Counted from the first letter of the stretch, positions 12,197-61,640 are shown. The stretch is 64,000 bases of DNA from Nitrosopumilus sp. (GCA_965204345.1 OZ241981.1:1952001-2016000), one strand, 5' to 3'. Notes: a model not told the origin generated them from the letters alone. A program made the numbers and translations.

Positions 12197-12355
12197 CGGT
12201 TCTGGTAAATTTTGGCGCTTCATGCCACAAATCACAGATTTGGAAAGTCTGAACTGCACTGGGATTTTTTGATGACTAGATAGTTTAAGAAAATCATCTC
12301 TTGGCAATTTACTGTTAAATTTCAGTGAACAGATCATCAGAATTTATCAGAACCG
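12197..12355 (+). mobile_element. Full-length MITE-like repeat with 18-bp imperfect terminal inverted repeats
   Basis: Left end cggttctggtaaattttg vs reverse complement of right end cggttctgataaattctg (16/18); related copies at 421, 13210, 19775 and 21405. Confidence 0.75.
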
Positions 12356-12527
12356 AACCACGTATGCGTATGTCAGTGATCCGACTGTGACAAAAAGCAT
12401 GTCTGTGCCAGTCACTGCAGCCCTTTTGACAAATTGTTGTTTTGACATGGACTCGTGCGAGTTTCGGAAAATTATTCCTCATCAGCGTGCCTTTCTAGTT
12501 GAGTTATATTGGTAGAATGATGTGATG

Positions 12528-12598
12528 TAGTGAGGGCTAAGGGTATACTGTCATCATATTGATGTTCAGAATGAGTGGATCTTACATGGCCCTCACTA
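12528..12598 (-). ncRNA. Putative box C/D-like guide RNA unit 1 (degenerate C box)
   Basis: Minus strand: TAGTGAGGGC-C-ATGTAAGA-TCCACTCATT-CTGA-ACATCAAT-ATGATGA-CAGTATACC-CTTA-GCCCTCACTA. Confidence 0.4.
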
Positions 12599-12706
12599 TC
12601 CAGTATCTGGCTGTCTTGAAAAATTGCGCATGGTCTGAGTTTCAGGAATCAACCCTGTATTCCCAGATGCCTTCTAGTTGAGTTATATTGGTAGAATGAT
12701 GTGATG

Positions 12707-12777
12707 TAGTGAGGGCTAAGGGTATACTGTCATCATATTGATGTTCAGATCAACGCCGACTCATCATGCCCTCACTA
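12707..12777 (-). ncRNA. Putative box C/D-like guide RNA unit 2
   Basis: Minus strand: TAGTGAGGGC-ATGATGA-GTCGGCGTTGAT-CTGA-ACATCAAT-ATGATGA-CAGTATACC-CTTA-GCCCTCACTA. Perfect C, D' and C' boxes, variant D box, 10-bp terminal stem. Confidence 0.55.
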
Positions 12778-12967
12778 TCCTATATTCTAATTCCGAATCT
12801 CTTGGAAGGTGCAAAGTATTGGATTTTGAAAAAGGCTGTTGCAGAAAATGGTTTTGGGTTTTGGAGATTTGATTTTCAAAGACTTGGTTTTGTTTTTTTG
12901 ATTTTGTTTTTTGGTTTTTGAAGATTTAATTTTTGGAAATTGCACAATTTTGATGTCATGTAATTAC

Positions 12968-13209
12968 GCGATAGTTGAAATGGATGTCGTGTGATTGTGT
13001 GATATTTTGGATGATTTTTGTGTAAATTGCCTGCTTTGTGTTTGGAACTAAAGTTAGGGATTTTTCCTTATCTGTGCTAAAAGTTGTGTTTTTTGGGTTT
13101 GTTTAATATCTGATACAACTTTTGTACCAAGGGCGTTTTGTTAACCCCCTTTTTGCAGTGGTTTTTTGATACCATTAGACTGCGATAGTTGCAATGGATA
13201 TCGCGTAAT
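12968..13209. repeat. Pair of 28-bp imperfect hairpin repeats (12968-12995, 13182-13209)
   Basis: gcgatagttgaaatggatgtcgtgtgat vs gcgatagttgcaatggatatcgcgtaat (4 mismatches). Confidence 0.75.
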
Positions 13210-13362
13210 GGTTCAGGCAAATTCTGATGAACTGATCACTGGAATTTAACAGTAAATCGCATAGATGATTTTCTTAAACTATCCAGTCATCAAAAAATCC
13301 CAAAAAAGTGCGGTTCAGAGATTGCACTGATTTACGGCACAGGCCACCAATTTACCATAGCC
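13210..13362 (-). mobile_element. MITE-like repeat copy in inverted orientation
   Basis: Reverse complement contains gggattttttgatgactggatagtttaagaaaatcatct...catcagaatttgcctgaacc, matching 12197-12355. Confidence 0.8.
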
Positions 13363-16826: not shown

Positions 16827-17747
16827 TTATACGTGTACTTGTTTTAGAATGAAATTTGCTAATGCGTCCTCTGATAATTTATTTTTCATGGTGATTTTTG
16901 TCTCAAACACATTCATATCCAAACTATGAATTTTTTTGGTCAGCGTCTTATCTTTGGTATCCACAATGATGTTGGCACATACATCTGAATACATTTTTGC
17001 TAGTCCGTAGGCATTTGATTCTATTCCTGCTGCTTGCATGTATTTTGCGGCAGGTCCGCTAATTGCATTATCCCCTATTAGCGGACTAATTGCTACTACC
17101 TTCTTTTTCATTTTTGATAATTCTTTCCTAATTCCTTTAATCTGAAGCATCGGGCCTATTGACGTTAATGGATTGCCTGGTGCTAAAATCACCATATCTG
17201 AATCATGAATTGCATTTACAGCTTCTGGATTTGGACGCGCCTTGTCTGCTCCGATATATTGTATTCCCTCGACTGGATCCTTTCCTCTGTGTTTGACCCA
17301 ATATTCTTGCAAATGTAATTCTCCTTTATCTGTGGTTATTCTTGTTTCAATACTGTTGTCTGTAACTGGAATGATATTGGCACTAACTGCAAACTTTTCA
17401 CACATCCATTTTGTTATGTCACTGAGGTTCTTTCCGTTTTTTAGCATGTTGGTCCTAATCAAATGTGTTGCAGCGTCTCTGTCTCCGACTCTGAACCATG
17501 TCTCTTCTCCGAAAACTTCCATTTGACGTAAAAAGTTGAATGTATCTTTTTTCATTCCCCATCCTCTTTCTTGATCAAGTAAATCTGCCAATCCATAAAT
17601 TATGGTATCAATATCTGGACACACATATAGTCCGTAAAGCCAATAATTGTCTCCTACATTGCTAATTACATTAACTTTGGATTCTTGTGACACTAGTCCT
17701 CTGACTAGTTTTACTGAACCTGTTCCTCCTGCTAATACTGTAATCAT
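16827..17747 (-). CDS. cofD: 2-phospho-L-lactate transferase CofD
   Basis: LAGGTG, CPDIDT, GDRDAATH and LQEYWV motifs. Confidence 0.95.
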   Translation of the reverse strand: MITVLAGGTGSVKLVRGLVSQESKVNVISNVGDNYWLYGLYVCPDIDTIIYGLADLLDQERGWGMKKDTFNFLRQMEVFGEETWFRVGDRDAATHLIRTNMLKNGKNLSDITKWMCEKFAVSANIIPVTDNSIETRITTDKGELHLQEYWVKHRGKDPVEGIQYIGADKARPNPEAVNAIHDSDMVILAPGNPLTSIGPMLQIKGIRKELSKMKKKVVAISPLIGDNAISGPAAKYMQAAGIESNAYGLAKMYSDVCANIIVDTKDKTLTKKIHSLDMNVFETKITMKNKLSEDALANFILKQVHV

Positions 17748-17862
17748 ACCATATACCTCTAAAACTGAAAATACTAATTCTGTTACTCCATATTACTTTT
17801 TCAAAACCTCTCGATCTTAGCATTTAGGATAAGTTTATTACCGTATTTCATGGATTTTACTC

Positions 17863-19227
17863 GTGTCTAGGGCTGTAATTATGACTGTTTTACTTGCAAC
17901 TCTTATCGTTGTTAGCACTAGTGCTCCTGCTTGGGCTGCCCAATTAGATGCAACAATTAATCCTAATAATGAATTATCTCCATTTAAGATGACTTATCAA
18001 AAAACCGTCTTTATTGAATATCCAAATGGCGGTAATCTCTTTGATGATCTTCAAGGTAAAGAATGGAGAGTATCTGGTACTGCTGATTCTACCAATCCTG
18101 GTGTTCAAAGTCTTATAGAAGAACTAAATCGTGGAATTGTAAATGATGGCAGTCAAGCACAAATTACTGACTTGGATGTGTCTTATGATTTTAAGCTTAA
18201 AGCAAGAAACATTAACACTTCTATTGATTATAATGTTGTTTTAGAAGGATCTCTAAGTGATTATGTAATCACTCAGGATTCTCAAAGAACTTTGGTTGAC
18301 TTGGGATGGAGGGGTCTCTCAACCGATAATGAGATTGTGATAGATGATGTCGAAATTAACATTCCAATTAATATATTACGGGACCAAGAGCCTGAAGTTT
18401 ATGCTTATTTTGTAGGTACAGAAGCAGAAGACGTACTTGGAAGACATCTCATTGATGCTGATTTTATTTTAGAGCAACCACTGACCAATTGGCATTTTTT
18501 GTTTGATCCAACTGGAATCAGTGTGGATGCTGGAACTTATGGTTTAGATGACGAAATAGCTGGATTTGTTCTATCTGAGTGGACCATGGGTGAGAGTAGT
18601 ATTAGAGAACAACGTCAAGTTCCAAAAGTCTTTGAAGCTGAAATTGTTTCTGATCAAACCTACACTGTAACAAGTATTCAATCATCTGACTCTGCAACCT
18701 TGACTGCTGTTGGATTTGGTGCTTTAGATATGTTAGATGGAATTGAAATTATTGGTATAACCCCGACTCCTCCTGAGGATTTTATGACTACTTCAACTGG
18801 TGATTTCCCTGTACTGATTATTTATGGAATGGCTGGAATTGCAGCTGTTGCAGGTATCGCATTTTTCTTCATTAGCAGCAGATCACTCAAAAATACCTCT
18901 CAGGGACAACAAGGAATTGATCCTACTAGACTTGTAGGCTATGAAACTAGCGATTCATCTGGAGGCTATAAAACCAACAGAGGTGAGGCCCAATTAAAAA
19001 ATGATTCTGACTATCAACAAACACGAAGTCATTATGATACGACGCAAAGTCCACCACCACCGCCACAAACAACTCCTTCTGATAGGGAAGACGCAGCATG
19101 TGGGTGTGCGGCTTCTGCTGAAATGGGCTCTGAATGTGATTGTGCTATGCAAGGTGCATGTCTTTGTGATGGAACTTGCCAATGCAATGCGGATATCTGT
19201 AAAGAACAAGTTTCTTCAATGAGATAA
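17863..19227 (+). CDS. Hypothetical single-pass membrane protein with Cys-rich C-terminal tail
   Basis: Signal peptide, TM near aa 315-340, tail CGC...CDC...CLC..CQC...C. Confidence 0.75.
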   Translation: MSRAVIMTVLLATLIVVSTSAPAWAAQLDATINPNNELSPFKMTYQKTVFIEYPNGGNLFDDLQGKEWRVSGTADSTNPGVQSLIEELNRGIVNDGSQAQITDLDVSYDFKLKARNINTSIDYNVVLEGSLSDYVITQDSQRTLVDLGWRGLSTDNEIVIDDVEINIPINILRDQEPEVYAYFVGTEAEDVLGRHLIDADFILEQPLTNWHFLFDPTGISVDAGTYGLDDEIAGFVLSEWTMGESSIREQRQVPKVFEAEIVSDQTYTVTSIQSSDSATLTAVGFGALDMLDGIEIIGITPTPPEDFMTTSTGDFPVLIIYGMAGIAAVAGIAFFFISSRSLKNTSQGQQGIDPTRLVGYETSDSSGGYKTNRGEAQLKNDSDYQQTRSHYDTTQSPPPPPQTTPSDREDAACGCAASAEMGSECDCAMQGACLCDGTCQCNADICKEQVSSMR

Positions 19228-19400
19228 TCTTACACTTTTTATTCGTATTTTCACATTTCCACAAATGAAAACCTTCTGTTTCGTTTGATTTTTTTGTAAA
19301 TTTTACAATTTACGATAAACAAGCTTTAGACGACCAATGAGAACGCATTCATACAAAAGATCTAACAAAAGAAATTTGAGTATGGAATCTTTGCCAAGAA

Positions 19401-19474
19401 TGGTCATGACCTCATGGGAATCAAACCCGTACCCAAGGAGTATCAAGCCTCATGTGACCATTACACAAGGACTT
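19401..19474 (-). pseudogene. Degenerate tRNA-like relic
   Basis: Minus strand has D-arm-like GTGTAATGGTCAC and T-arm-like GGGTTTGATTCCC at tRNA spacing, ending ACCA; acceptor and anticodon stems pair poorly. Confidence 0.35.
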
Positions 19475-19774
19475 ACAAGGTTTTTTAATTGGATAGTGTC
19501 ATAATGATATTAAAAGTCTTGACCCTAAGACATGCTAATTACATTAGCCTGGTTTTCCTTTCTGCCAAGGCCCACAGCTCTTCAAGTGAAAAGAAAACAA
19601 AATTTTATCAAAACAAATGACTGCTTGCTTCTCAAACAATCTTGGCAGATGTTGTGTTTTCCAATATCAAATAATCATCAACATTCTCTGACTGTCTGAA
19701 ATTATTTCCGGTTTTACTGCATTGAGTCATTCCGTTATGCCGGCAGACCTTTGTTTTCAATACATGAAAAGGAA

Positions 19775-19819
19775 TTCTGGTAAATTCCGATGATCAATTC
19801 GTCAAAATTTACCAAATCC
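19775..19819 (+). mobile_element. 3' fragment of the MITE-like repeat
   Basis: taaattccgatgatcaattcgtcaaaatttaccaaatcc aligns with the repeat right end taaattccagtgatcagttcatcagaatttgcctgaacc. Confidence 0.6.
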
Positions 19820-19890
19820 ATGCGAAATCTTGATATTTCCAGCAAGTCATCTGTTAGTCATTTTTAATAACAAGGCAATCCACACTATGT

Positions 19891-21387
19891 ATGGCTGGAA
19901 TTGTAATGTCAGGATTTTTGGTTTTGGGCACCGTGATGATGATAGTGATGGTGCCAGCATATGCTGCATCCACTGACTCACCATTGGAACAGTATCAGTC
20001 AGGCATACCAATAGGCATGATTCAGTGTAATGACGGCAAGCTTTTGATGATGACTTCTGCAGGCAAGCCCGTTTGCGTAACTAGTGATTCTGCTCTGCGA
20101 TTAGCATATAGGGACTATGCCACGGTATACCAGCCAGATATATCTCAAAAAGCCAACGCCAAAAGCGTAACAGGGTCAAACAACAATGACGAGGACACCT
20201 CGGCAGATGATGATGCCGTTACTATGGATGATGGTATCACCACAAAGATGCAGCCATCTAATTATACCCGTATTGCAGCTACGAACAATCAGTTTGCAAT
20301 TGATTTTTACAGACAGATATCAGACACTCCTGAAAATATATTCTTTTCACCTGTCAGCATGTATCTAGCATTTTCAATACTGTATGAGGGTGCCGGAGAA
20401 AACACTGCGCAAGAAATGCAGGATGTCTTTGGATTTGAACCAGACAAAGATGCACGCCACAACTCTACATCACATTTTATATCCTCAATAAACCAAGATG
20501 ATCCATACATAGAACTGAATACGGCAAACGCACTTTGGATTGTAGACTGGTTTGAACCATATGATTCCTATACCTCTGTGGCACGAGAGACATATCTTTC
20601 CACCGCAGAAAAGGTAAACTTTTTGGATGCAGATGACGGTGTAAAAAGGATAAACCAGTGGGCCTCTGATAACACAAACGGCAAGATTGAAAAAGTAATT
20701 GCTCCGGCGGATGTAAACGAATTGACTGCAATGGTAATCAACAATGCCATATACTTTAAGGGCACATGGAAAACACAGTTCCCAGAGGAGGACACCGCAG
20801 AGTCCGCCTTTTGGAAGAATAGCGAGGATTCTGTAGATGTAGATTTTATGACGGTGCTAGGCAGATTCGACTTTGGATTATTAGATAATGCTAGGATGCT
20901 AAAAATGCCATACGATGGCGACAGGCTATCGATGTTGGTAATCCTGCCAGACGATACAGACGGCCTAAAACATCTGGAGGATTCCATATCACATGAACAG
21001 ATTAGACAATGGACACAGAACTTGTATAATCAACGAGAAGTTCTAGTATCAATTCCAAAGTTCCAAATAGCTGAAAAATATATTCTTAACGAACCGCTGA
21101 TGAATCTTGGAATGCCAGATGTGTTTAGTCCAGACAATGCTAATCTTGGAGGAATTGCAGATATTTCTTCAGGTAACAACCTATACGTAACTGCTGCAAT
21201 TCAGGACACGTTTATAGACGTAAATGAAGAAGGGACAGAAGCGGCTGCTGTAACAACTATCATTTCTGCGCGAGAAAGCCTACCACCTCCACCTCCACAA
21301 TTCATTGCAGATCATCCGTTTTTGTTTATAATTCAGGATGATGAGAGCGGTACGATTCTGTTTATGGGAAAGATATCTGATCCGTAA
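19891..21387 (+). CDS. Secreted serpin (serine protease inhibitor) with N-terminal thaumarchaeal Cys-containing domain
   Basis: NIFFSPVS, NAIYFKGTW, hinge EEGTEAAA and FIADHPFLF motifs; signal peptide; SPLEQ...IQC...PVCV N-domain. Confidence 0.95.
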   Translation: MAGIVMSGFLVLGTVMMIVMVPAYAASTDSPLEQYQSGIPIGMIQCNDGKLLMMTSAGKPVCVTSDSALRLAYRDYATVYQPDISQKANAKSVTGSNNNDEDTSADDDAVTMDDGITTKMQPSNYTRIAATNNQFAIDFYRQISDTPENIFFSPVSMYLAFSILYEGAGENTAQEMQDVFGFEPDKDARHNSTSHFISSINQDDPYIELNTANALWIVDWFEPYDSYTSVARETYLSTAEKVNFLDADDGVKRINQWASDNTNGKIEKVIAPADVNELTAMVINNAIYFKGTWKTQFPEEDTAESAFWKNSEDSVDVDFMTVLGRFDFGLLDNARMLKMPYDGDRLSMLVILPDDTDGLKHLEDSISHEQIRQWTQNLYNQREVLVSIPKFQIAEKYILNEPLMNLGMPDVFSPDNANLGGIADISSGNNLYVTAAIQDTFIDVNEEGTEAAAVTTIISARESLPPPPPQFIADHPFLFIIQDDESGTILFMGKISDP

Positions 21388-21404
21388 ACTATAGTTGTGC
21401 ACTA

Positions 21405-21550
21405 CGGTTCTGGTACATTCTGGCGTTCCATGCCATAAATTCACAGATTTAGCTGTCTCTGAAAATACTTTGGGAATTTTTTTCTGAGTATTACCTCTTG
21501 GTAATTTTTAAGAGAATCATCTTTTGGCAATTTGCTGCTAAATTCCGATG
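21405..21550 (+). mobile_element. 5' part of the MITE-like repeat (lacks right TIR)
   Basis: cggttctggtacattctggcgttccatgccataaattcacagattt...ttaagagaatcatcttttggcaattt aligns with 12197-12325. Confidence 0.75.
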
Positions 21551-22097
21551 CTTTTCAAGAATTGTTATAAAGTTTCAGAAAAAGGTTTCAAATAACTTTC
21601 AATTTTTACTCTGATATTTTTTTTCTTTGATTTATGATTGTCATTGCATGTCCTTGCAAATGACCCTTGTCTAGCAGATATTTTTTGTGTTGTGAATACT
21701 GAATTCTTTTCCACCACAGCTGTACTTCATATTTTTTTATTAACGTCCTGTATCAATTCATGCTTGATTTTTAAAATTTGGAATGTGTGCTGGGAGTAAC
21801 CCTCCTTCTGTTTTCACGATATTTCGCTTTGCAGCCTACCTGAACCTAGTACAGGATCTTAAAGTTCTGTTTGGCTTTGCTCCATGTGGGTCGTCTGTTT
21901 CATTCCTTTTATGGAAACCTCAGGTTTTGCCATCACCGTGCGCCATATTGGATTCTTTTCTGTTCCGTTGCCAATCATCTCTGATTATCTATCTCCAGAT
22001 CACATTTCCTGTATGGAGGGAGGAGTTTCCTCTGCCGTAGCAGTGTGTCGTGCTCCAGCTCACATAATTCCTATTTCTTAATTGGATTTGAGTATTA

Positions 22098-22724
22098 CTA
22101 TGCAGGTCTTGTACCTATTATAAACAAAGTTCCAAATTCTCGTTTCCATTTTTTCTTATTTTTTAAATCTTTGATTTGTTTGGTTTTTACTTTAAATCCC
22201 GCATTCTTGAAAAATTCCATCCATTCTTTTTTTGAATGCAAGTGCATTTGTATCTTCATAATTTTTGCCCATCTAGATGTTGCTTTATTGTCTTTGTAAA
22301 AATCAGTACCACAAAAAAACTGCCCTCCATGCTTTGTCAATTTGTATATCTTATCTAATGCAACCTCTATAGAATCTGCATAATAAAGTGATTCCATTGA
22401 AAAGATAAAATCAAACTTTCTTTTACCGTCTAGTGATTCGATATCTGTATGTATGAATTCCTCTTTTTTACTTTCTACCCTTTTTTCTGATTCTTTTATC
22501 ATGTTTTTACTTTTGTCTATGCCTGTAGCTTTTTTACAATTTTCTTCTTTTGAAATTTTTCTTATGACCCATCCATTTCCACATCCTATGTCTAAGAATG
22601 TAAATTTCTTCTCAAATGATATTGTCTTTAAAAATTTTAAAACATTCTTCCCGTGCTCTATCTCCATTGATTCTGCCTTTCCGTTTTTAGCCCACCTGTC
22701 AAAAGTTTCCCTGACTTTGTCCAT
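22098..22724 (-). CDS. Class I SAM-dependent methyltransferase
   Basis: FLDIGCGNG and FDFIFSMESLYY motifs. Confidence 0.9.
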   Translation of the reverse strand: MDKVRETFDRWAKNGKAESMEIEHGKNVLKFLKTISFEKKFTFLDIGCGNGWVIRKISKEENCKKATGIDKSKNMIKESEKRVESKKEEFIHTDIESLDGKRKFDFIFSMESLYYADSIEVALDKIYKLTKHGGQFFCGTDFYKDNKATSRWAKIMKIQMHLHSKKEWMEFFKNAGFKVKTKQIKDLKNKKKWKREFGTLFIIGTRPA

Positions 22725-22846
22725 TTACCTTGATTAATTCATTCTCAATATAATCTTCATCTTGCTGGTCATTGCTATGGATGAATTGCTGTGTTTCTTA
22801 TGTGCAATTTTGATGAATTATCTTCAAATAAGACTGCCTGATGATA

Positions 22847-22948
22847 CTAGTATTGCCTTTTGGGCAGTTACTATCTGGAATGGTGCATCTCATGAGAACA
22901 TCTAGCATCCTGCAATGAATGCTAGTATTGCCTTTTGGGCAGTTACTA
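22847..22948. repeat. Two identical 27-bp palindromic repeats separated by 48 bp
   Basis: ctagtattgccttttgggcagttacta at 22847 and 22922. Confidence 0.9.
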
Positions 22949-23029
22949 GGCCTGATTTGGTCCAATCTGACTATTATACATATCATAGCTGCTCAAGTTT
23001 TAAGTAATATGAGCCTCGATTTGATTCTT

Positions 23030-25987
23030 ATGAGGAAAATTCCAATAGTTTTGAGTATCTTTGTGCTACTTTTAATGCCTGTTTATGCCTCTGCTCAAAC
23101 CCCAGCTGGAATTACTATTCTTGAAAATTTTGGTGACTATAGCAATGGAGAACCGTTGTTTGTTTATGGTCAAATTGCCAATCCTGTAGATGATTCCTTT
23201 TTGATCATGCAAATTTTTAATCCTAATGAGGATCTGTGCCAAATTCAACAGCTGATACCATTAGAAAATGGCGTCTTTATCACTGATGTAATTCCCCTAA
23301 AGGGTAGGATATGTGGAACTCCTGGAGAATATGAAATAAAATTATTTTATGGTGACATGTCCAAGTCTACGACATTTAATGTTTCATCTGATTCTTTTAT
23401 AGAACCAGACACTGAACAAAAAATACTCTTGGCTCAGAATTTAATTTCTGAACAAACAGCTATCATTGAGCAAATATCTGACATTTCTTTATCTTCATCA
23501 AATCCGGTTGCAAGTGATTTAGACACTTTAGAATCTGATTATGTATCTTTGTGGGGTGAGTTTTTTGTAGATGATTTAATTTTTGAAATCGATCCTTTGA
23601 TCAGACCTGCCATAGAATCATCTTTAGATTCTGTAGAGAAAATGTTAGATGACGGTGAGATTTCTTTTGAGATTGCGCAATCCATTGATAATGTGTTATT
23701 TGCATCTGTTTTTTACTATGAAATTGGCGATAAAGCCAAAGCAATTGACCTGTTAGCTGATGCTTTTGTAGACATAAGAAATGCCAATCCAGAAAAAACA
23801 GCCACCCAAAGGATTCCTACTTTTGATGAATTAGAAGCAACGCTGCTAAATCTAATGACAAAATCTGACACCGTACTGAGCAAATCAGTTAAAAATGAAA
23901 TTGGCTTTATTTTTGCTAGAGGTACTGCTCCTGTCTATACATATGAACTTGCTGAGCTTATTGATATTTTAACTAAATCTCGTTATCTTGACGTTGTATC
24001 TAGAAAGCAAAGTGATCTTTACAACTTGGTTCAACGTGATTGGGAATCTCTAAAACTTTCTTTAATTGGCAAGGACTCCATTGAAGAGTTAATTCTCTCC
24101 ATTGAGCGTGTCTCTAAACTGCATCAGGCTGCAATTCTTTTACGTGAACTTGATAGCGTTGATAGGTTCATTTCTTCAGATTCTGAGGAAAACAGTGATC
24201 TTGCTAATCTCATTATGAATGATTGGGATGACCTAGAACGTGATTTATCTTTGGCATCTAACGTAGATGATATCCTCGAATCTGAATCAAAAATCAATCA
24301 AATGGCACAAGTTATTGATATTTCATCTAGAATTCACAAAAGTGTTGAAATTTCACAAAGCAACGGTGTTGACCCCAAGCTTGCAAGTAGTTGGAGTCTG
24401 CTTTTAGAACAAGTTGAAAATGCTAATTCTGTAGATGATGTTTTACAAATTGTGTCTGAATTTAATCAATCCATGACTGAACTTAGAGAAAAACGAAATC
24501 CATTGACTGTATTAAAACTCCAATATGACAGCATGAAAGAAACTGCAAAACTTCAGGCTGATTATGAAAATTTGGTTTTAATTGATAATGCACTACAGAT
24601 TCTAAAGACTGCTAAAGAAATGGAATCTGGCAATCCTTCCATAACTAGGATTGATCGAATTGAGGTTTTGCTAACTTGGGTTAGTGAAAAGGCCCCCTTG
24701 ATAAAAAGTGATTTAGACGCATATAATAAAGACACATACAAAGTCCGGGCAAGTGATATTTTACAGCGTGCAAAATCCCTTGAAAATTTAGCTGAACTAA
24801 GTTTAACAAAGAACAAGTTCCTGCCAAAATATGTTGAATTTGCTGAAACGTTCAATGAAAAAATTGACAATGCTAGGGATCTTGTAATTAAAAACCAGCT
24901 TAATGAAGCTGATAAACTAGTTGATGCCTTATTTGACGAATGGACTATGGTTTCAAAAGCATATACTGATGATCCATTCGGTTCTAATACCGGATATAAC
25001 CTAGATGAAATCAAGCGAATTGAATTTTATGAAAAATTAGATGGCTTTTCAAACATGGTATCTACTTTCCACAATGCCGATTTTTCTGAATATGTCGATG
25101 AATATGAACAGAAAATGAGTGACGCTAATGATTTGATCGAGATTGCCAATTTTGTGGATGCTGAATCAAAAATTTTAGAAATTGGCTCGTATCTTAGTGA
25201 ACATTTGGTATTAAATGATGAAAATATCATGTTTGACATTTCATTTGATACTGAAAAAGATATCTGGATAATCTCTGGCGCTACTGACAAATCTACTTTT
25301 GATAGACGTGAAAATCTGTATGTAACAGTATACAACATGGATGGTACCACTCATAGCAGTCTTGAATTTACTGATACCAAGCAAGGAAACTTTTTGACCC
25401 AATGGGTTGCCCCTACTGATTCTGGATTGTACGTTGTAATGCTACAGTACAAAGATTCACAGGCTACACAAATTGTAAATGTTGAAGAAAAATTTGACTA
25501 TGAATATACTGCATCTGATTTAGACATGGTTGATTTGGCACGCGAATTTGGTGAATTAGAATCATTTGCTGAAAATTTCGGCGGTAATTCCTTTTATGAT
25601 AATCCACGATTTTCTTCTGTGATTAATGAAATCAAACTTGCATTTGGTAACAAAGATGAGAAACGCATAGATGATAACCTGGAAGAACTAAAAACGTTAA
25701 TTGAGCGCTATCTGCCTGTTCGTTCTCGTTCTGCTGTAGTTGAGGTTGCCTATGACAATGATAAATTAGTTGTATCCGGCGCAGTCGAAAAAGCTGTGAC
25801 GTTTAGGGAAGATTTGTTTGTTGATGTATATGATCAAAGAGGTGAATTGGTTGAGGCGATTGCTCTTAAGGACAATCCATCTGGTCTATTTACTGAAGTT
25901 GTTCCACGCTCACTTGATTCAGGCATTTATGTTGCACAATTACAATATCATGACATGTTGGTAACTGATTTCTTTAATGTAAACTAG
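23030..25987 (+). CDS. Large secreted hypothetical protein (helical core, terminal beta modules)
   Basis: ORF track start at 22919 lies within the repeat; MRKIPIVLSIFVLLL signal peptide at 23030, with TATA-like ttttaag about 30 nt upstream, is more likely. Confidence 0.8.
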   Translation: MRKIPIVLSIFVLLLMPVYASAQTPAGITILENFGDYSNGEPLFVYGQIANPVDDSFLIMQIFNPNEDLCQIQQLIPLENGVFITDVIPLKGRICGTPGEYEIKLFYGDMSKSTTFNVSSDSFIEPDTEQKILLAQNLISEQTAIIEQISDISLSSSNPVASDLDTLESDYVSLWGEFFVDDLIFEIDPLIRPAIESSLDSVEKMLDDGEISFEIAQSIDNVLFASVFYYEIGDKAKAIDLLADAFVDIRNANPEKTATQRIPTFDELEATLLNLMTKSDTVLSKSVKNEIGFIFARGTAPVYTYELAELIDILTKSRYLDVVSRKQSDLYNLVQRDWESLKLSLIGKDSIEELILSIERVSKLHQAAILLRELDSVDRFISSDSEENSDLANLIMNDWDDLERDLSLASNVDDILESESKINQMAQVIDISSRIHKSVEISQSNGVDPKLASSWSLLLEQVENANSVDDVLQIVSEFNQSMTELREKRNPLTVLKLQYDSMKETAKLQADYENLVLIDNALQILKTAKEMESGNPSITRIDRIEVLLTWVSEKAPLIKSDLDAYNKDTYKVRASDILQRAKSLENLAELSLTKNKFLPKYVEFAETFNEKIDNARDLVIKNQLNEADKLVDALFDEWTMVSKAYTDDPFGSNTGYNLDEIKRIEFYEKLDGFSNMVSTFHNADFSEYVDEYEQKMSDANDLIEIANFVDAESKILEIGSYLSEHLVLNDENIMFDISFDTEKDIWIISGATDKSTFDRRENLYVTVYNMDGTTHSSLEFTDTKQGNFLTQWVAPTDSGLYVVMLQYKDSQATQIVNVEEKFDYEYTASDLDMVDLAREFGELESFAENFGGNSFYDNPRFSSVINEIKLAFGNKDEKRIDDNLEELKTLIERYLPVRSRSAVVEVAYDNDKLVVSGAVEKAVTFREDLFVDVYDQRGELVEAIALKDNPSGLFTEVVPRSLDSGIYVAQLQYHDMLVTDFFNVN

Positions 25988-53402: not shown

Positions 53403-53621
53403 ATGTTCATAGATGGCATCAGGATTCTTTTATTTGAGAGTGTATTGATTTCATTATTAATTTTTGTCTGTTCGGAATTTATTTTATTATGTTATTTTGA
53501 AACCGTGTGGCAGGTTGTTGGATTGTTAATGGCACTGTTCATATCATCATCAATCTTGCAGGCAATATTTTTGCTCATCGTATATGTTATGATTTATAAA
53601 AAAACAAAAAAAGAGATCTGA
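53403..53621 (+). CDS. Small two-TM protein; only its 3' end is repeated in the array
   Basis: Hydrophobic 72-aa ORF spanning the array left boundary at 53539. Confidence 0.55.
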   Translation: MFIDGIRILLFESVLISLLIFVCSEFILLCYFETVWQVVGLLMALFISSSILQAIFLLIVYVMIYKKTKKEI

Positions 53622-53636
53622 TAGGGTGAGAGATAG

Positions 53637-54389
53637 ATGGCCTATACTAAAATAATGTCTTGTTTTGTGATGGTCTGGTTTGTTGTCGTTGTTATTAGCA
53701 TTATTGTTGTTCAACCCAGTTATGCGAATCTTCAAGATAATCTGATAGGAGGCAGTGATTTTGAAAAGTTAAAAATTCTTGAATATGACAAGAATCGCTT
53801 TGGCCTGTTTGGCTCTGATCAGTTAAAATGGATCATAAACTGGAATGGTGAGAGTTGGCAAGAGGAAACCCTGTTTGTTCAAGCAAGTAGCACTGCGTCC
53901 AAAATAACGTTTCTTGCCAGTGGAACTGACCGTCTTCATTTGGATGATATTGCACTGTCAAAAACATCGCTTGGGAAAAATTCAAACGAGTTTGCATTGG
54001 ATTTAATTCCTCAAAAAAGAGCTATTACAAACGAGCAAGATGCGCCGTTTCTGCTTGAGATAAACCCGATCTCTTTGGATTCCACCTCTGCTGCTGCCAC
54101 TCCCATGATACAACTAGACGTTGTTTATGATCAAAATGATTTCAAAGAAATATCCGTAAATCCCGACAGCGGGATTCCCCCATTCAAATCAGTCATTTTG
54201 GTCCATCCAGCACAAACTTCTGGAATAAAAAACTTCACCATACTTTCGCAGGATAGTCTTGATAATAATGTACAGGTTGTGGGAACCGTTGAAATACAAG
54301 AACCAAAAAACACATTTCTCTGGAATTTAATCATTGGCATACTGACAATTTTATTGGCATTGGGACTGTTCAAAGTAATCAAGAAATAA
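53637..54389 (+). CDS. Secreted, C-terminally anchored hypothetical protein, copy 1
   Basis: Signal peptide, beta-rich body, TM plus KVIKK. Confidence 0.8.
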   Translation: MAYTKIMSCFVMVWFVVVVISIIVVQPSYANLQDNLIGGSDFEKLKILEYDKNRFGLFGSDQLKWIINWNGESWQEETLFVQASSTASKITFLASGTDRLHLDDIALSKTSLGKNSNEFALDLIPQKRAITNEQDAPFLLEINPISLDSTSAAATPMIQLDVVYDQNDFKEISVNPDSGIPPFKSVILVHPAQTSGIKNFTILSQDSLDNNVQVVGTVEIQEPKNTFLWNLIIGILTILLALGLFKVIKK

Positions 54390-54422
54390 AAATTCTTCTG
54401 TATTGGCAGCGCGTACTGCTGT

Positions 54423-57041
54423 CTATGTTTTCACTTTGAATAAGGCAGCTTCACCTTCTCTAATGACTAATTGCAATTGAGGATTATCCTCAAAGAGGGC
54501 TATTCGTTCAGAAGTACTTATGTGAAGAGCTGGAAATACTGGTAGAAGCTGGTTCACATCCGATTGTTGTCTGTCTTGCGGATCACCGCCAGTAATTAAC
54601 ACATATTCAATACCATACTTGTCCAATATTTCCATCATTTTCATGTCTCCGGGATGGTGTAATACAAGGTTAGCCTCATATGCTCTCTCTTTTAGAAATG
54701 TATCATCTAACACAACACTACTGTGTATTCTTCTCCACATTTCTCTGTTATTAGTTATATCAAATATCTTTATTGATGAAAGCCACATTCCTTCACCAGT
54801 TCTATCCTCAAGGATGGTTGTATTTGAATCAAGATTGTCATTCATCCAACCCATCACTTTTAATTCATTGCTTGTAGGTAAATATCCTAGCAAATTATCT
54901 TTATACTCGTATGAAATATGAGTATCAAGACTTGGAGTTAGTGCAATAAAAACCAACGAGTAAATCGCTATGGACAAGACTGATTTTGAACGTAATGAAA
55001 TTTCGCGTTTGTTAAACCTAGTTGCAAGTTTATCAAAAATATCAACCCCTGCTAAAATTATTCCTATTTGAGAGATGATAGCTCCTAGTAAAACAAGTCT
55101 GTCAGGATACATAAACCAGAAAAGATTCTCGTAAATTACTTTATTTGATATTGTTCCAAACACTAGGGAAAACATTACAATCAAAAATAAACTAAACTCT
55201 CGATTGGATTTAAACAACCAAATTGCAGAAAGAACCCCCCCTAGTAATAAAATAAAATAAGGAAAATATATAGAATCCATGTTGTATATGTCTGCATCCT
55301 CTAATAATAGCCAAAAATAGTCGATAAGAATATTATTTATCTTCTGCAATTCATCTGCAAAATAAACCAGTGATGCGCCTGATGTTACTACCAAAATAAT
55401 TAACGCCAATCGTAAAATAAGCATATAGTTTTTTATCTTAAATTTCCCGACTCGCAGTCCATTTGTTTTGGAGTTTATGGGGGATTTTAAGAGTATTAAT
55501 TTAATAATTATAAACAAAACAAAGGGAACGATCATGATAGTATATGTGATAAATATTACAACTGACAATAGCGAATAAATAATAAAATTAGAATTATTTT
55601 TATTATTAATAACTATGCTGATAAAAAGCAAAAGTATGCAAGTAAATGTAGCAAATACAAAAGTTCCTGTAGATAATGGAGTAAGTAGTACATCATGAGA
55701 AATTACAAAATAACCTACTTCATTTCCTGGAATAAAAAACAATGCTCCAAATGCAATGCTTGCCAAGTAATACGATTTGGTTTTTTTGTATATTATTGAA
55801 AAACAGATGGGCGGCAAGAGTGCAACAATTGTTACTGTGACGGCATATTGGGATATTGGCAGCATGACGTTTGTAATCAAAGAAAAAAATGCAGTCAAAG
55901 CATGAAATCCCTGAGGATAAACTGTCATTCCATATGGCAAATCAAAAAATGGCCAATTATTGTTAAACACACTCGTATGATACATTATAAATTGCGAAGC
56001 GTGACCATGGTATTGCGAATCAAAAACAGGCGGCCAGTTCATATTTTCTGCAATTATAAAAAAGTGAGTCAGTGACAGAATTATGAGTATGCCTGCAATC
56101 AGATTTGGAAGAACTTTTTCATTTTTAATTTCAGACAGAATTTTAGCTCTGTCTCTGAAAATCAAGTAAGAGCCAACCATCATAAACGAAAAGAAGGCTG
56201 TCAGAACAGTAGTCTGTGTAAAGTGAAGCATTGCCAGAAAAATCGCCAAAAGAATCAGCAATACCAAGCCAAAGGCAGAGTACAGGGAAAAATTAATTAC
56301 AAATCCAAAATTCAGCTTGTATCGGATAATTTTTAATAGAAAATACCCCATAATAACTGAAGACGACAAATAAACAATCATGGATGTCAGTATCTCGTTT
56401 TTAAAATTCGACCTGTCTGAACCTATTTTGCTGTCAAATAATTCAGGCACTACCTCTGCATCTGTAATGAGCGTGGTCTGGGAATAAGAGTCCCCTCCGT
56501 TTACAAATGTAATTCTAAGAGACTTGACATTGCCAGGATCAAAGCCAGGTTTATTTTGAACGTAATTGGAGGGATCTACAATAACTTTTGCCCAAGTGCC
56601 ATCTTCTAAACCAAACCACTGTGGCAAATTCCAAAAAGGACGCTGTATATCATTTGCATCAACCATGATCAAAAATGCATTAGCCCTCCATGCTTCATGA
56701 GTACTTTTATTTATTCCAGCCACATTTTCAAGATTCATCCAAAATCGTAATCCTTGGCCCGTAGACAGATCCACAGGCTTGGAAAAACGGCACTCAAGAA
56801 CTGCTGTTTCTGTGGCATCACTGCTGGAAAAATAACTATAGGTAAAATCGCTATCATCATCATCATCATCACTATTCATATTCAGAGATTTGTCCAAAAA
56901 ACTAGACTCTGAATCCCACGTACAGTTATTCTCACTGTCAGACTCGAAAACATAAAAATCATGAAGATTTTCGGCAAATACAATTGATGGCAACGCACAT
57001 AATACCAACAAAACAAGTGCTATCCCACTAACAAGAAACAA
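54423..57041 (-). CDS. GT-C-fold (DUF6541/STT3-like) membrane protein with N-terminal CBM11/CIA30-like domain, copy 1 (allele A)
   Basis: Signal peptide; GLRFWM...WAKVIV...FDPGNVKSLRITF beta domain; first-loop D.QYH and YPQGFH; many TMs; C-terminal ELKVMGWM..N and LDKYGIEYVLI. Confidence 0.65.
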   Translation of the reverse strand: MFLVSGIALVLLVLCALPSIVFAENLHDFYVFESDSENNCTWDSESSFLDKSLNMNSDDDDDDSDFTYSYFSSSDATETAVLECRFSKPVDLSTGQGLRFWMNLENVAGINKSTHEAWRANAFLIMVDANDIQRPFWNLPQWFGLEDGTWAKVIVDPSNYVQNKPGFDPGNVKSLRITFVNGGDSYSQTTLITDAEVVPELFDSKIGSDRSNFKNEILTSMIVYLSSSVIMGYFLLKIIRYKLNFGFVINFSLYSAFGLVLLILLAIFLAMLHFTQTTVLTAFFSFMMVGSYLIFRDRAKILSEIKNEKVLPNLIAGILIILSLTHFFIIAENMNWPPVFDSQYHGHASQFIMYHTSVFNNNWPFFDLPYGMTVYPQGFHALTAFFSLITNVMLPISQYAVTVTIVALLPPICFSIIYKKTKSYYLASIAFGALFFIPGNEVGYFVISHDVLLTPLSTGTFVFATFTCILLLFISIVINNKNNSNFIIYSLLSVVIFITYTIMIVPFVLFIIIKLILLKSPINSKTNGLRVGKFKIKNYMLILRLALIILVVTSGASLVYFADELQKINNILIDYFWLLLEDADIYNMDSIYFPYFILLLGGVLSAIWLFKSNREFSLFLIVMFSLVFGTISNKVIYENLFWFMYPDRLVLLGAIISQIGIILAGVDIFDKLATRFNKREISLRSKSVLSIAIYSLVFIALTPSLDTHISYEYKDNLLGYLPTSNELKVMGWMNDNLDSNTTILEDRTGEGMWLSSIKIFDITNNREMWRRIHSSVVLDDTFLKERAYEANLVLHHPGDMKMMEILDKYGIEYVLITGGDPQDRQQSDVNQLLPVFPALHISTSERIALFEDNPQLQLVIREGEAALFKVKT

Positions 57042-57245
57042 CAGATTCTAAAATTTTCTTGTTTATTTATCTTTTCTTTATAAGATTAGGAATTTTGTTT
57101 TTTAATAAAAAATTACGTGGAAGATTTTTGATTGTCAATAGCATGGGTCATATCATCATCAATCTTGCAGGCAATATTTTTGCTCATCGTATATGTTATG
57201 ATTTATAAAAAAACAAAAAAAGAGATCTGATAGGGTGAGAGATAG

Positions 57246-57998
57246 ATGGCCTATACTAAAATAATGTCTTGTTTTGTGATGGTCTGGTTTGTTGTCGTTG
57301 TTATTAGCATTATTGTTGTTCAACCCAGTTATGCGAATCTTCAAGATAATCTGATAGGAGGCAGTGATTTTGAAAAGTTAAAAATTCTTGAATATGACAA
57401 GAATCGCTTTGGCCTGTTTGGCTCTGATCAGTTAAAATGGATCATAAACTGGAATGGTGAGAGTTGGCAAGAGGAAACCCTGTTTGTTCAAGCAAGTAGC
57501 ACTGCGTCCAAAATAACGTTTCTTGCCAGTGGAACTGACCGTCTTCATTTGGATGATATTGCACTGTCAAAAACATCGCTTGGGAAAAATTCAAACGAGT
57601 TTGCATTGGATTTAATTCCTCAAAAAAGAGCTATTACAAACGAGCAAGATGCGCCGTTTCTGCTTGAGATAAACCCGATCTCTTTGGATTCCACCTCTGC
57701 TGCTGCCACTCCCATGATACAACTAGACGTTGTTTATGAGCAAAATGATTTCAAAGAAATATCCGTAAATCCCGACAGCGGGATTCCCCCATTCAAATCA
57801 GTCATTTTGGTCCATCCAGCACAAACTTCTGGAATAAAAAACTTCACCATACTTTCGCAGGATAGTCTTGATAATAATGTACAGGTTGTGGGAACCGTTG
57901 AAATACAAGAACCAAAAAACACATTTCTCTGGAATTTAATCATTGGCATACTGACAATTTTATTGGCATTGGGACTGTTCAAAGTAATCAAGAAATAA
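57246..57998 (+). CDS. Secreted anchored hypothetical protein, copy 2
   Basis: Identical to copy 1 except VYDQ to VYEQ. Confidence 0.8.
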   Translation: MAYTKIMSCFVMVWFVVVVISIIVVQPSYANLQDNLIGGSDFEKLKILEYDKNRFGLFGSDQLKWIINWNGESWQEETLFVQASSTASKITFLASGTDRLHLDDIALSKTSLGKNSNEFALDLIPQKRAITNEQDAPFLLEINPISLDSTSAAATPMIQLDVVYEQNDFKEISVNPDSGIPPFKSVILVHPAQTSGIKNFTILSQDSLDNNVQVVGTVEIQEPKNTFLWNLIIGILTILLALGLFKVIKK

Positions 57999-58031
57999 AA
58001 ATTCTTCTGTATTGGCAGCGCGTACTGCTGT

Positions 58032-60650
58032 CTATGTTTTCACTTTGAATAAGGCAGCTTCACCTTCTCTAATGACTAATTGCAATTGAGGATTATCCTC
58101 AAAGAGGGCTATTCGTTCAGAAGTACTTATGTGAAGAGCTGGAAATACTGGTAGAAGATAGTACACACTAGAGGGGTGTCTGTCTTGCGTATAACCGCCA
58201 GTAATCAACACATATTCAATACCATACTTGTCCAATATTTCCATCATTTTCATGTCTCCGGGATGGTGTAATACAAGGTTAGCCTCATATGCTCTCTCTT
58301 TTAGAAATGTATCATCTAACACAACACTACTGTGTATTTTTCTCCACATTTCTCTGTTATTAGTTATATCAAATATCTTTATTGATGAAAGCCACATTCC
58401 TTCAGTAGTTCTATCCTGAAGGATGGTTGTATTTGAATCAAGATTGTCATTCATCCAACCCATCACTTTTAATTCATTGCTTGTAGGTAAATATCCTAGC
58501 AAACCATCGTCATACTCGTATGAAATATGAGTATCAAGACTTGGAATTAGTGCAATAAAAACCAACGAGCAAATCGCTATGGACAAGACTGATTTTGAAC
58601 GTAATGAAATTTCGCGTTTGTTAAACCTAGTTGCAAGTTTATCAAAAATATCAACCCCTGCTAAAATTATTCCTATTTGAGAGATGATAGCTCCTAGTAA
58701 AACAAGTCTGTCAGGATACATAAACCAGAAAAGATTTTCAAAAATTACTTTATTTGATATTGTTCCAAACACTAGGGAAAACATTACAATCAAAAATAAA
58801 CTAAACTCTCGATTGGATTTAAACAACCAAGTTGCAGAAAGAACCCCCCCTAGTAATAAAATAAAATAAGGAAAATATATAGAATCTATGTTGTATATGT
58901 CCATCTCTTCGAATAATAGCCAAAAATAGTCGATAGGAAGATTATGTTTCTTCTGCAATTCATCTGCAAAATAAACCAGTGATGCGCCTGATGTTACTAC
59001 CAAAATAATTAACGCCAATCGTAAAATAAGCATATAGTTTTTTATCTTAAATTTCCCGACTCGCAGTCCATTTGTTTTGGAGTTTATGGGGGATTTTAAG
59101 AGTATTAATTTAATAATTATAAACAAAACAAAGGGAACGATCATGATAGTATATGTGATAAATATTACAACTGACAATAGCGAATAAATAATAAAATTAG
59201 AATTATTTTTATTATTAATAACTATGCTGATAAAAAGCAAAAGTATGCAAGTAAATGTAGCAAATACAAAAGTTCCTGTAGAGAATATAGTAAGTAGTAC
59301 ATCATGAGAAATTACAAAATAACCTAATTCATTTCCTGGAATAAAAAACAATGCTCCAAATGCAATGCTTGCCAAGTAATACGATTTGGTTTTTTTGTAT
59401 ATTATTGAAAAACAGATGGGCGGCAAGAGTGCAACAATTGTTACTGTGACGGCATATTGGGATATTGGCAGCATGACGTTTGTAATCAAAGAAAAAAATG
59501 CAGTCAAAGCATGAAATCCCTGAGGATAAACTGTCATTCCATATGGCAAATCAAAAAATGGCCAATTATTGTTAAACACACTCGTATGATACATTATAAA
59601 TTGCGAAGCGTGACCATGGTATTGCGGATCAAAAACAGGCGGCCAGTTCATATTTTCTGCAATTATAAAAAAGTGAGTCAGTGACAGAATTATGAGTATG
59701 CCTGCAATCAGATTTGGAAGAACTTTTTCATTTTTAATTTCAGACAGAATTTTAGCTCTGTCTCTGAAAATCAAGTAAGAGCCAACCATCATAAACGAAA
59801 AGAAGGCTGTCAGAACAGTAGTCTGTGTAAAGTGAAGCATTGCCAGAAAAATCGCCAAAAGAATCAGCAATACCAAGCCAAAGGCAGAGTACAGGGAAAA
59901 ATTAATTACAAATCCAAAATTCAGCTTGTATCGGATAATTTTTAATAGAAAATACCCCATAATAACTGAAGACGACAAATAAACAATCATGGATGTCAGT
60001 ATCTCGTTTTTAAAATTCGACCTGTCTGAACCTATTTTGCTGTCAAATAATCCAGGCACTACCTCTGCATCTGTAATGAGCGTGGTCTGGGAATAAGAGT
60101 CCCCTCCGTTTACAAATGTAATTCTAAGAGACTTGACATTGCCAGGATCAAAGCCAGGTTTATTTTGAACGTAATTGGAGGGATCTACAATAACTTTTGC
60201 CCAAGTGCCATCTTCTAAACCAAACCACTGTGGCAAATTCCAAAAAGGACGCTGTATATCATTTGCATCAACCATGATCAAAAATGCATTAGCCCTCCAT
60301 GCTTCATGAGTACTTTTATTTATTCCAGCCACATTTTCAAGATTCATCCAAAATCGTAATCCTTGGCCCGTAGACAGATCCACAGGCTTGGAAAAACGGC
60401 ACTCAAGAACTGCTGTTTCTGTGGCATCACTGCTGGAAAAATAACTATAGGTAAAATCGCTATCATCATCATCATCATCACTATTCATATTCAGAGATTT
60501 GTCCAAAAAACTAGACTCTGAATCCCACGTACAGTTATTCTCACTGTCAGACTCGAAAACATAAAAATCATGAAGATTTTCGGCAAATACAATTGATGGC
60601 AACGCACATAATACCAACAAAACAAGTGCTATCCCACTAACAAGAAACAA
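58032..60650 (-). CDS. GT-C-like membrane protein, copy 2 (divergent allele B)
   Basis: Same length as copy 1, about 29 aa replacements by my count. Confidence 0.65.
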   Translation of the reverse strand: MFLVSGIALVLLVLCALPSIVFAENLHDFYVFESDSENNCTWDSESSFLDKSLNMNSDDDDDDSDFTYSYFSSSDATETAVLECRFSKPVDLSTGQGLRFWMNLENVAGINKSTHEAWRANAFLIMVDANDIQRPFWNLPQWFGLEDGTWAKVIVDPSNYVQNKPGFDPGNVKSLRITFVNGGDSYSQTTLITDAEVVPGLFDSKIGSDRSNFKNEILTSMIVYLSSSVIMGYFLLKIIRYKLNFGFVINFSLYSAFGLVLLILLAIFLAMLHFTQTTVLTAFFSFMMVGSYLIFRDRAKILSEIKNEKVLPNLIAGILIILSLTHFFIIAENMNWPPVFDPQYHGHASQFIMYHTSVFNNNWPFFDLPYGMTVYPQGFHALTAFFSLITNVMLPISQYAVTVTIVALLPPICFSIIYKKTKSYYLASIAFGALFFIPGNELGYFVISHDVLLTIFSTGTFVFATFTCILLLFISIVINNKNNSNFIIYSLLSVVIFITYTIMIVPFVLFIIIKLILLKSPINSKTNGLRVGKFKIKNYMLILRLALIILVVTSGASLVYFADELQKKHNLPIDYFWLLFEEMDIYNIDSIYFPYFILLLGGVLSATWLFKSNREFSLFLIVMFSLVFGTISNKVIFENLFWFMYPDRLVLLGAIISQIGIILAGVDIFDKLATRFNKREISLRSKSVLSIAICSLVFIALIPSLDTHISYEYDDGLLGYLPTSNELKVMGWMNDNLDSNTTILQDRTTEGMWLSSIKIFDITNNREMWRKIHSSVVLDDTFLKERAYEANLVLHHPGDMKMMEILDKYGIEYVLITGGYTQDRHPSSVYYLLPVFPALHISTSERIALFEDNPQLQLVIREGEAALFKVKT

Positions 60651-60854
60651 CAGATTCTAAAATTTTCTTGTTTATTTATCTTTTCTTTATAAGATTAGGA
60701 ATTTTGTTTTTTAATAAAAAATTACGTGGAAGATTTTTGATTGTCAATAGCATGGGTCATATCATCATCAATCTTGCAGGCAATATTTTTGCTCATCGTA
60801 TATGTTATGATTTATAAAAAAACAAAAAAAGAGATCTGATAGGGTGAGAGATAG

Positions 60855-61607: not shown

Positions 61608-61640
61608 AAATTCTTCTGTATTGGCAGCGCGTACTGCTGT

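Follow-up and report, generated by a model that had tools for sequence, protein, structure and literature searches.

How does a single gene come to stand between two parts of a repeat that are in permuted order? In the window analysed here, a 64,000-nt stretch of DNA of the sponge-associated archaeon Nitrosopumilus sp. (its numbering is used throughout), a serpin gene for a secreted protease inhibitor has the 3' part of a dispersed repeat on its left and the 5' part on its right, and both parts carry the same 12-mer, TAAATTCCGATG. The original prediction, made from the sequence alone, took these flanks for attL and attR, left behind when a 1758-bp circle holding the serpin and one whole repeat integrated at a 12-bp core. 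Its descriptive side held up well. The two 12-mers, at 19781-19792 and 21539-21550 on the + strand, are identical at 12 of 12 positions and lie 1758 bp apart, and a profile model of the repeat assigned positions 121-164 to the left piece and 1-138 to the right piece, so that the repeat is indeed split, with the 12-mer in the overlap. For the origin of the arrangement we favour a different reading, to which we give a probability of about 0.7: the locus is a mosaic insertion-deletion of repeat-bounded blocks, 2.25 kb long (~19301-21550). The features on which the argument turns are listed below.

19229..19300, no strand: ancestral intergenic spacer 3' of a 454-aa gene; left-side alignability to same-genus relatives ends at 19300-19301 (blastn, local alignment)
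19301..19770, no strand: lineage-specific filler, two pieces of which recur elsewhere in the genome; no tRNA, no Rfam family
19771..19819, + strand (orientation ambiguous): left repeat piece, a complete 49-bp palindromic mini-element (nhmmer model positions 121-164; hairpin) made of two arms of the terminal inverted repeat (TIR) type and a short loop, with the left 12-mer (19781-19792) inside
19820..19890, + strand: leader and putative promoter region, common to 9/9 genes with the N-terminal block (N-block) from ~19850
19891..21387, + strand: serpin gene, 498 aa (Pfam PF00079)
21406..21551, + strand: right repeat piece, 5' TIR and body, breaking off within the terminal hairpin's loop (model positions 1-138), with the right 12-mer (21539-21550) inside
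21551..21595, + strand: remnant of a conserved 47-codon ORF (last ~14 codons and stop), with the same neighbours in relatives
21785..22063, - strand: archaeal RNase P RNA gene, the conserved right neighbour (Rfam RF00373, 195.8 bits, E 9.6e-57)

We searched the interval 17000-23500 of the window in 40 relatives, 24 of them of the same genus. The two flanks, a CofD gene and the 454-aa gene on the left and the RNase P RNA and a methyltransferase gene on the right, were on one contig in 17 of the 24 same-genus genomes, where they lay 5-982 bp apart versus ~2250 bp here, and none of these had room for a serpin. In the remaining 7 the flanks were on different contigs (4), rearranged (2) or without a match (1). 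The view of the serpin as an insertion was thus borne out: the DNA is lineage-specific, and its right limit, by comparison with the relatives, coincides exactly with where the right 12-mer stops. In five genomes homology resumed at 21550-21552, right after that 12-mer, because this is where the remnant of a 47-codon ORF carried by the relatives begins. Across the eight loci that we read, this ORF was intact in five (MSERLTIMLNSDIAKKLRALQAKKIKESSSTVSFSRIVNEVLEKGLK in G012), frameshifted in one and absent from two, and 21551-21595 represents its decayed last 14 codons. We had guessed from its pattern that it encodes a ribbon-helix-helix protein; a Pfam search gave no match at E up to 1, and the guess was dropped.

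On the left, homology to the relatives stopped at 19300-19301. The limits on the two sides therefore define the lineage-specific DNA as ~19301-21550, and not as beginning at 19781. About 170 bp of ancestral DNA has been replaced, comprising the promoter and first 32 codons of the 47-codon ORF; these ~170 nt were not detectable in 19302-19792, where 27-174 of 200 shuffles reached the observed alignment score. The empty site that had been predicted was absent from the relatives, in which the place of the right 12-mer abuts the 3' end of the ORF. The 12 nt found at that place (TCAACAGTTAGT and variants) shared 4/12 positions with the 12-mer at six relatives' loci, the sequence before ...TTTTCAAGAATTG being TCAAC(A/T)GTTAG(T/C) and similar. 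The relatives are only 75-82% identical, and none is therefore the immediate ancestor of the site.

The arrangement is not confined to one assembly. Public runs from four studies, some of them designated as sponge metagenome, contained the stretch, and contigs from the runs of three studies (X10, X2, X3) bridged the same arrangement. Those of X2 and X3 bridged 18000-19950, with 114 differences, and 21328/21368-23000, with 16 differences; they span both junctions, and other strains therefore share the arrangement.

The left 480 bp of the lineage-specific DNA is unrelated to the serpin unit. A piece at 19307-19397 is similar to C1:187417 and C1:1883743, and a second, at 19407-19636, is similar to C1:566178-566396 (78%). 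The start of the latter (19407-19480) had the look of a T-arm by eye, and we considered it as a tRNA-like att remnant, a candidate that was rejected when ARAGORN detected no tRNA either in the window or at C1:566 kb, the locus homologous to this piece. Rfam likewise gave no hit, with E limits of 1 and 0.1. At the left boundary there is a possible TIR-like 16-mer (19305-19320), which fell under the nhmmer threshold and is in the wrong orientation for a composite element.

The pieces that flank the serpin belong to a family. When blasted (blastn) against the genome they returned dozens of copies, and within the window 19771-19820 and 21405-21440 resemble copies at 516, 12197-12355 and 13210-13361. 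An alignment of 19 full-length copies defined a dispersed repeat of ~164 bp with TIRs of 17 nt (GGTTCTGGTAAATTTTG ... CAAAATTTACCAGAACC), and an nhmmer profile built from these copies gave 93 hits in the 2.12-Mb genome at a threshold of E up to 0.01, almost all of them intergenic. The 3' third of the repeat is a hairpin, the inner arm of which (...CTGTTAAATTCCAGTG) is similar to the 5' TIR and has the 3' TIR as its pairing partner; the motif CTG-N-TAAATT-NN-(AG/GA)-TG is present in both hairpin arms and in the 5' TIR. A short form consisting of the 3' hairpin (model start 102-126) accounts for 29/93 hits, the left piece among them, either as the module alone or fused to other repeat bodies, while six long copies, including the right piece, break off within the hairpin loop (model end 134-146). 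Because of these 29 short-form hits and six loop-ending copies, both of the apparent break points at the serpin are recurrent forms of the family.

Small repeats of this general kind are known as MITEs and Correia-type elements, examples being the Correia elements of Neisseria and the archaeal MITEs of Sulfolobus. Like them, the family described here is short, non-coding and dispersed in many intergenic copies, has TIRs, includes internally deleted short variants and is found near promoters. In contrast to them, its 3' hairpin module is also met by itself or fused with the bodies of other repeats, its copies have no evident target-site duplication (inspection by eye of the sequence beside 22 full-length copies revealed no direct repeat), and the nine matches to an IS240-type DDE domain (DDE_Tnp_IS240) in the genome yielded no autonomous partner that shares its ends. 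None of these nine (0/9) is bracketed by a TIR pair within 2.5 kb on either side at <=4 mismatches in 17, and the sole intact TIR pair near them is a 158-bp copy of the repeat itself (C1:289405-289562). With neither target-site duplications nor an autonomous partner found, we use "MITE" as a label of form only. The repeat was found in 2 of the 81 genomes of the genus searched, namely G000 and, as one 39-nt match, G002; a full-text literature search found no paper on MITEs in Thaumarchaeota.

The two pieces at the serpin differ in kind. By the profile, 19776-19819 corresponds to model positions 121-164 (E 2.9e-4) and 21406-21551 to positions 1-138 (E 7.6e-21), so that they overlap by 18 model positions. 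The left piece had been thought to begin at its 12-mer; instead, the hairpin 19771-19819 takes in the 10 preceding bases. Folded as DNA, this hairpin has an energy of -8.4 kcal/mol (z -2.65), and 2 of 200 shuffles fold as well; in its stem, GGA.TT.CTGGTAAATT pairs with AATTTACCA.AA.TCC. The 10 bases 5' of the left 12-mer (GGAATTCTGG) are TIR-like and are the stem partner of the 3' end of the piece. Since they pair in the complete hairpin, what had been supposed to be the host arm of attL belongs to the repeat element. In addition, 22/23 positions of AATTCTGGTAAATTCCGATGATC agree with the 3' ends of other copies in reverse complement, and 8 of the 11 repeat-borne versions of the 12-mer with one mismatch are reverse-complemented 3' arms; for these two reasons the orientation of the left piece is ambiguous.

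No hairpin was predicted at the end of the right piece (z +1.37), and no repeat-like sequence was found beyond 21550. We considered whether the repeat continues to the right of 21550, as a decayed 3' TIR or as another copy in inverted orientation, and rejected both, since the sequence there has no repeat homologues and corresponds to the 3' end of the 47-codon ORF seen in relatives. The alternative offered with the original prediction, two independently truncated MITEs, came nearer the mark in that two repeat pieces are present, and failed in that the left one is a complete mini-element without truncation.

Outside its two sites at the serpin the 12-mer has a single match in the window, at 12335 on the - strand and with one mismatch, where 0.48 matches at up to one mismatch are expected by chance. 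There are three exact occurrences in the 2.12-Mb genome, and the third (C1:1522966) is unrelated. The left 12-mer is of the terminal-arm type and lies in an arm of the complete mini-element, and the right one lies in the inner arm of a long copy. Because each sits in a motif-bearing hairpin arm of the repeat, the direct repeat is a family sequence that occurs twice, and not a duplicated crossover core. The corresponding 12 model positions are identical in 4.7% of random copy pairs (arithmetic from the alignment table, with 84 copies covering them). The variant ...CCGATG is carried in the + sense by the left and right pieces only, among the same 84 aligned copies, which hints at a specific kinship between them, by common descent or local conversion, over independence.

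The gene between the pieces encodes an N-terminal hydrophobic export block (19891-20156), then an acidic linker and then the serpin domain, which occupies aa 131-498 and covers positions 2-370 of the 370 in the PF00079 profile (E 8.5e-117; 390.9 bits, the cut-off being 27). Read directly from the translation, a hydrophobic stretch of ~30 residues opens the protein and closes with AYA|AS, and the hinge reads ...EEGTEAAAV..., which we take to be of the inhibitory type. Four close copies of the serpin were found in the genome, namely the focal gene and those at C1:670975-673274, C1:345979-347178 and C1:1680980-1682526 (the last frameshifted), together with one distant copy (42%) and one 3' fragment (C1:125381-125830).

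Within the genome, homology to the locus is block-wise. The segment 19777-20156, which takes in the mini-element, leader and N-terminal block, is nearest to C1:125838-126218 (82.5%), while 20241-21448 is nearest to C1:672118-670910 (88.9%), the match to serpin #2 extending 43 nt into the right repeat copy. The serpin-domain block (20239-21398) is 87-89% identical to the three close paralogues. The N-terminal block, from ~19850, occurs in at least 8 other genes, several of which encode 2256-2687 aa, and it heads nine genes of different cargo (serpins, giant surface proteins and others). In all nine, TTTTTAATAA lies ~30 nt before the ATG within the conserved leader, and a repeat terminus stands at a fixed position upstream (9/9).

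The 3' ends tell a similar story. Each of the five close serpin 3' ends (5/5) is followed by a repeat piece that starts 10-25 nt past the stop and shares the gene's orientation; the part of the repeat that is present differs from one to the next (model positions 1-138, 4-68, 108-164, 107-163 and 112-164). The serpin paralogues are thus tightly tied to the repeat. The split flanks themselves had no counterpart among them: a 3' module on the left with a 5' part on the right was seen at 0 of the 5 other serpin loci. Serpins #3 and #4 also lie within lineage-specific patchwork insertions, of 2.9 and 2.7 kb, where G017 has gaps of 18 and 57 bp, and serpin #2 is within a 13.3-kb island that also holds eight same-orientation copies of the repeat with passenger genes between them. 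At C1:125.8 kb a serpin 3' end is followed by a mini-element and then by an N-block gene. This mini-element is the orthologue of the focal left piece, and is itself like that downstream of serpins #3 and #4.

The mosaic reading is built on the anatomy of the locus, the repeat family, the block homologies and the empty sites of the relatives, all of which we observed. By this reading, a lineage-specific mosaic would have replaced the ~170 bp of ancestral DNA in an insertion-deletion event and not by conservative insertion, and its blocks, which recur elsewhere in the genome, would be bounded by copies of the one ~164-bp TIR-bearing, MITE-like repeat. From left to right, these blocks would be 480 bp of other repeat debris; the 49-bp mini-element fused to the promoter and N-terminal export block; the serpin domain; and a repeat copy 3' of the serpin stop codon, as in every close paralogue. 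The mini-element would then have arrived with the promoter and export block, and the long copy with the serpin 3' end. The right break would lie in the hairpin loop of the long copy, exactly where the mosaic meets the ORF remnant, and we infer that the loop was the breakpoint. Recombination at or near repeat copies may have spread the blocks. Some observations sit less easily with the mosaic, among them the variant ...CCGATG that the two pieces share. The right breakpoint lies just past the stretch that overlaps the left piece, which would also be expected of a unit-length excerpt from a [serpin-repeat] form, tandem or circular, and the junction of serpin end, mini-element and N-block at C1:125.8 kb is of the kind expected in such a form. 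It is conceivable, at odds that we consider low, that the small hairpin repeat acts as a joint for gene-block recombination and that the permuted flanks and the C1:125.8-kb junction are relics of a head-to-tail or circular [repeat-serpin] intermediate.

A fuller version of that idea traces the permuted flanks to a [repeat-promoter-serpin] unit in head-to-tail form, whether tandem or circular, of which an excerpt slightly longer than one unit was inserted and later decayed. Recombination between direct repeat copies flanking a serpin would have produced the array, or a circle with one repeat, and illegitimate or repeat-mediated recombination would have inserted it, in a manner resembling an IS26-type translocatable unit driven in trans. 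The overlap of the pieces by 18 model positions, with a variant unique to them in the + sense, fits such a unit, as do the order of serpin 3' end, mini-element and N-block gene at C1:125.8 kb with its orthologous mini-element, the eight same-orientation copies with passenger genes in the serpin #2 island, and the nine DDE_Tnp_IS240 matches in the genome. The TIR, moreover, starts with GG and has G at position 7, the signature given for IS6/IS26 ends in the portion of PMC6807381 that deals with them. This version has, however, to account for the 480 bp of unrelated sequence that separates the left piece from the ancestral left flank and for the deletion of ~170 bp of target DNA, and the translocatable-unit reaction would leave two full copies and not a mini-element with a truncated copy. 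None of the IS240-type transposase matches is bracketed by the TIR, and the N-block and serpin block have different closest relatives. Nor was its joint found in contigs: joints from 21522 to 19802 occurred in X10, X2 and X3 and are sequence of the paralogous copy C1:143748-143907, and a single X3 joint, from 21522 to 19781 with 15 different letters in the gap, finds its simplest explanation in a further full-length copy of the family. More generally, the contigs of four runs, a form of data that drops rare forms, contained neither a circle joint nor an empty-site joint. We consider the insertion of such an over-unit excerpt unlikely.

Site-specific integration of a 1758-bp single-gene circle with one whole repeat (attP) at a 12-bp target core, giving attL at 19781 and attR at 21539, would explain both the exact direct repeat at the inner edges of complementary repeat parts and the coincidence of the right 12-mer with the right edge of the lineage-specific DNA. 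Conservative integration of this kind is nevertheless contradicted by the relatives' target sequence, in which the core is missing at all six loci (4/12 matches), by the nature of the left flank, which does not supply the missing half of the target ORF, and by the paralogues, with their 0/5 split flanks. The supposed host arm, GGAATTCTGG, is within a palindromic element; 19781-21550 holds one long ORF, the serpin, and no recombinase; and the five neighbouring ORFs scanned (including CofD, the methyltransferase and two without a family) contained no recombinase domain. We give this origin next to no credence. Mere coincidence, that is, two independent transpositions of the repeat beside a pre-existing serpin with the 12-mer shared by chance, fares little better in our judgement and is quite improbable. 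A family of 93 copies, nearly all intergenic, in which 4.7% of random pairs agree over the 12 positions, would make it feasible; against this, the left piece runs on without a break into promoter and N-block, all within a stretch homologous to C1:125838-126218, and the first 43 nt of the right copy lie within a stretch common to serpin #2. Being contiguous with homologous blocks, both pieces were therefore inherited with their blocks, with no insertion here, and no target-site duplications were seen.

Known systems offer partial likenesses. In IS26/IS6 translocatable units, one circle comprises one repeat and its cargo, as in the circle of the original prediction. The locus and its genome share with these units the GG...G7 ends, IS240-type DDE genes and direct-copy arrays with passenger genes between; they differ in that the repeat is without a transposase, the flanks are a mini-element and a truncated copy, and there is no 8-bp duplication. 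The family membership of the archaeal "IS6" elements is itself doubted in the part of PMC6807381 concerned with them. A short direct repeat edging a single-gene unit, and an imperfect palindrome beside the gene, recall elements bounded by attL and attR and the attC cassettes of integrons. Unlike the former, the present locus has a core that is absent from the relatives' target, no integrase seen in the neighbouring ORFs, and target DNA that was lost. Unlike attC cassettes, the repeat has an orientation uncoupled from that of neighbouring genes (16/13/10/7 over the four classes, for 46 long copies).

The locus thus combines two known kinds of thing, a MITE-like repeat family and the expansion of serpins in a symbiont. 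As matters stand it is an ordinary repeat-rich insertion, in which the direct repeat is appealing and looks coincidental, and the spread of serpins here takes the form of a lineage-specific patchwork with shared blocks bounded by one hairpin repeat, with no clean att-site cassette. Should the repeat prove to be a recombination joint, it would offer a concrete mechanism by which a symbiont multiplies and reshuffles secreted host-interaction genes. Were the head-to-tail or circular intermediate true, this would be a repeat-driven, translocatable-unit-like expansion of host-interaction genes in archaea.

Serpin expansion in sponge thaumarchaea has already been published, and counts as a hallmark of the ammonia-oxidising archaea that are symbionts of sponges. 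According to the serpin passages of PMC6790972 and PMC7848895, thaumarchaeal sponge symbionts have 15, 5, 5, 1 and 1 serpin copies with export signals and their free-living relatives almost none; those passages describe neither flanking repeats nor the mode of spread, whereas each close copy here is bounded by one and the same repeat family. As in the published symbionts, several copies with export signals are present. The serpin passage of PMC6790972 also names tRNA genes as insertion sites, and in the present genome serpin #4 lies directly after a tRNA-Ser gene.

We observed that nine genes of the source genome begin with one conserved leader and N-terminal export/anchor block, found at window 19850-20156 in the focal serpin gene and at 8 other loci. 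The export/anchor block itself spans ~90 aa and includes a conserved Cys pair, while the C-terminal parts of the nine genes are unrelated and proteins of 2256-2687 aa are among the products. Upstream of each gene, at the same position every time, lies a terminus of the ~164-bp MITE-like repeat. At contig positions (C1) 125381-127500, a serpin 3' fragment is followed by a hairpin mini-element, the short form of this repeat, and then by a gene of 538 aa, free of Pfam domains, whose start is the shared N-terminal block. We regard this arrangement as a relic resembling a tandem junction.

Serpin #2 lies in a lineage-specific island of 13.3 kb (C1:669411-682756), the flanks of which are only ~200 bp apart in the same-genus relatives G012, G014 and G017. 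Besides serpin #2, the island encodes protease-like ORFs and one ORF resembling an AAA ATPase, and each of these genes is on the - strand. Eight repeat copies, all in the same orientation (+), lie between the genes, and at each end a repeat copy is located 100-160 nt inward. The island looks like an IS26-style passenger array.

Serpin #4, a frameshifted gene, is held in a 2.7-kb patchwork insertion (C1:1680103-1682828) that directly follows a tRNA-Ser(GGA) gene and carries several other repeat families (3-6 copies, 90-96% identity).

Left of the focal serpin, a 230-nt sequence (window 19407-19636) has a second copy at C1:566178-566396 with 78% identity. It contains a T-arm-like stem-loop (GGGAATCAAACCC), but a tRNA identity was rejected, as neither ARAGORN nor Rfam called a tRNA.

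Two inverted copies of the ~164-bp repeat family, at window 12197-12355 (+) and 13210-13361 (-), enclose ~855 bp with no long ORF. Within this stretch, a 78-nt sequence recurs without mismatch as a direct repeat (12493-12570 and 12672-12749), and the inverted repeat GTGAGGGC...GCCCTCAC follows each of its copies. The region 12197-13361 possibly represents either a composite element or two paired small RNA genes. At least 3 tandem units of 3609 bp with 98% identity occupy window 53518-64000, reaching the window's end, and probably represent a giant repetitive gene.
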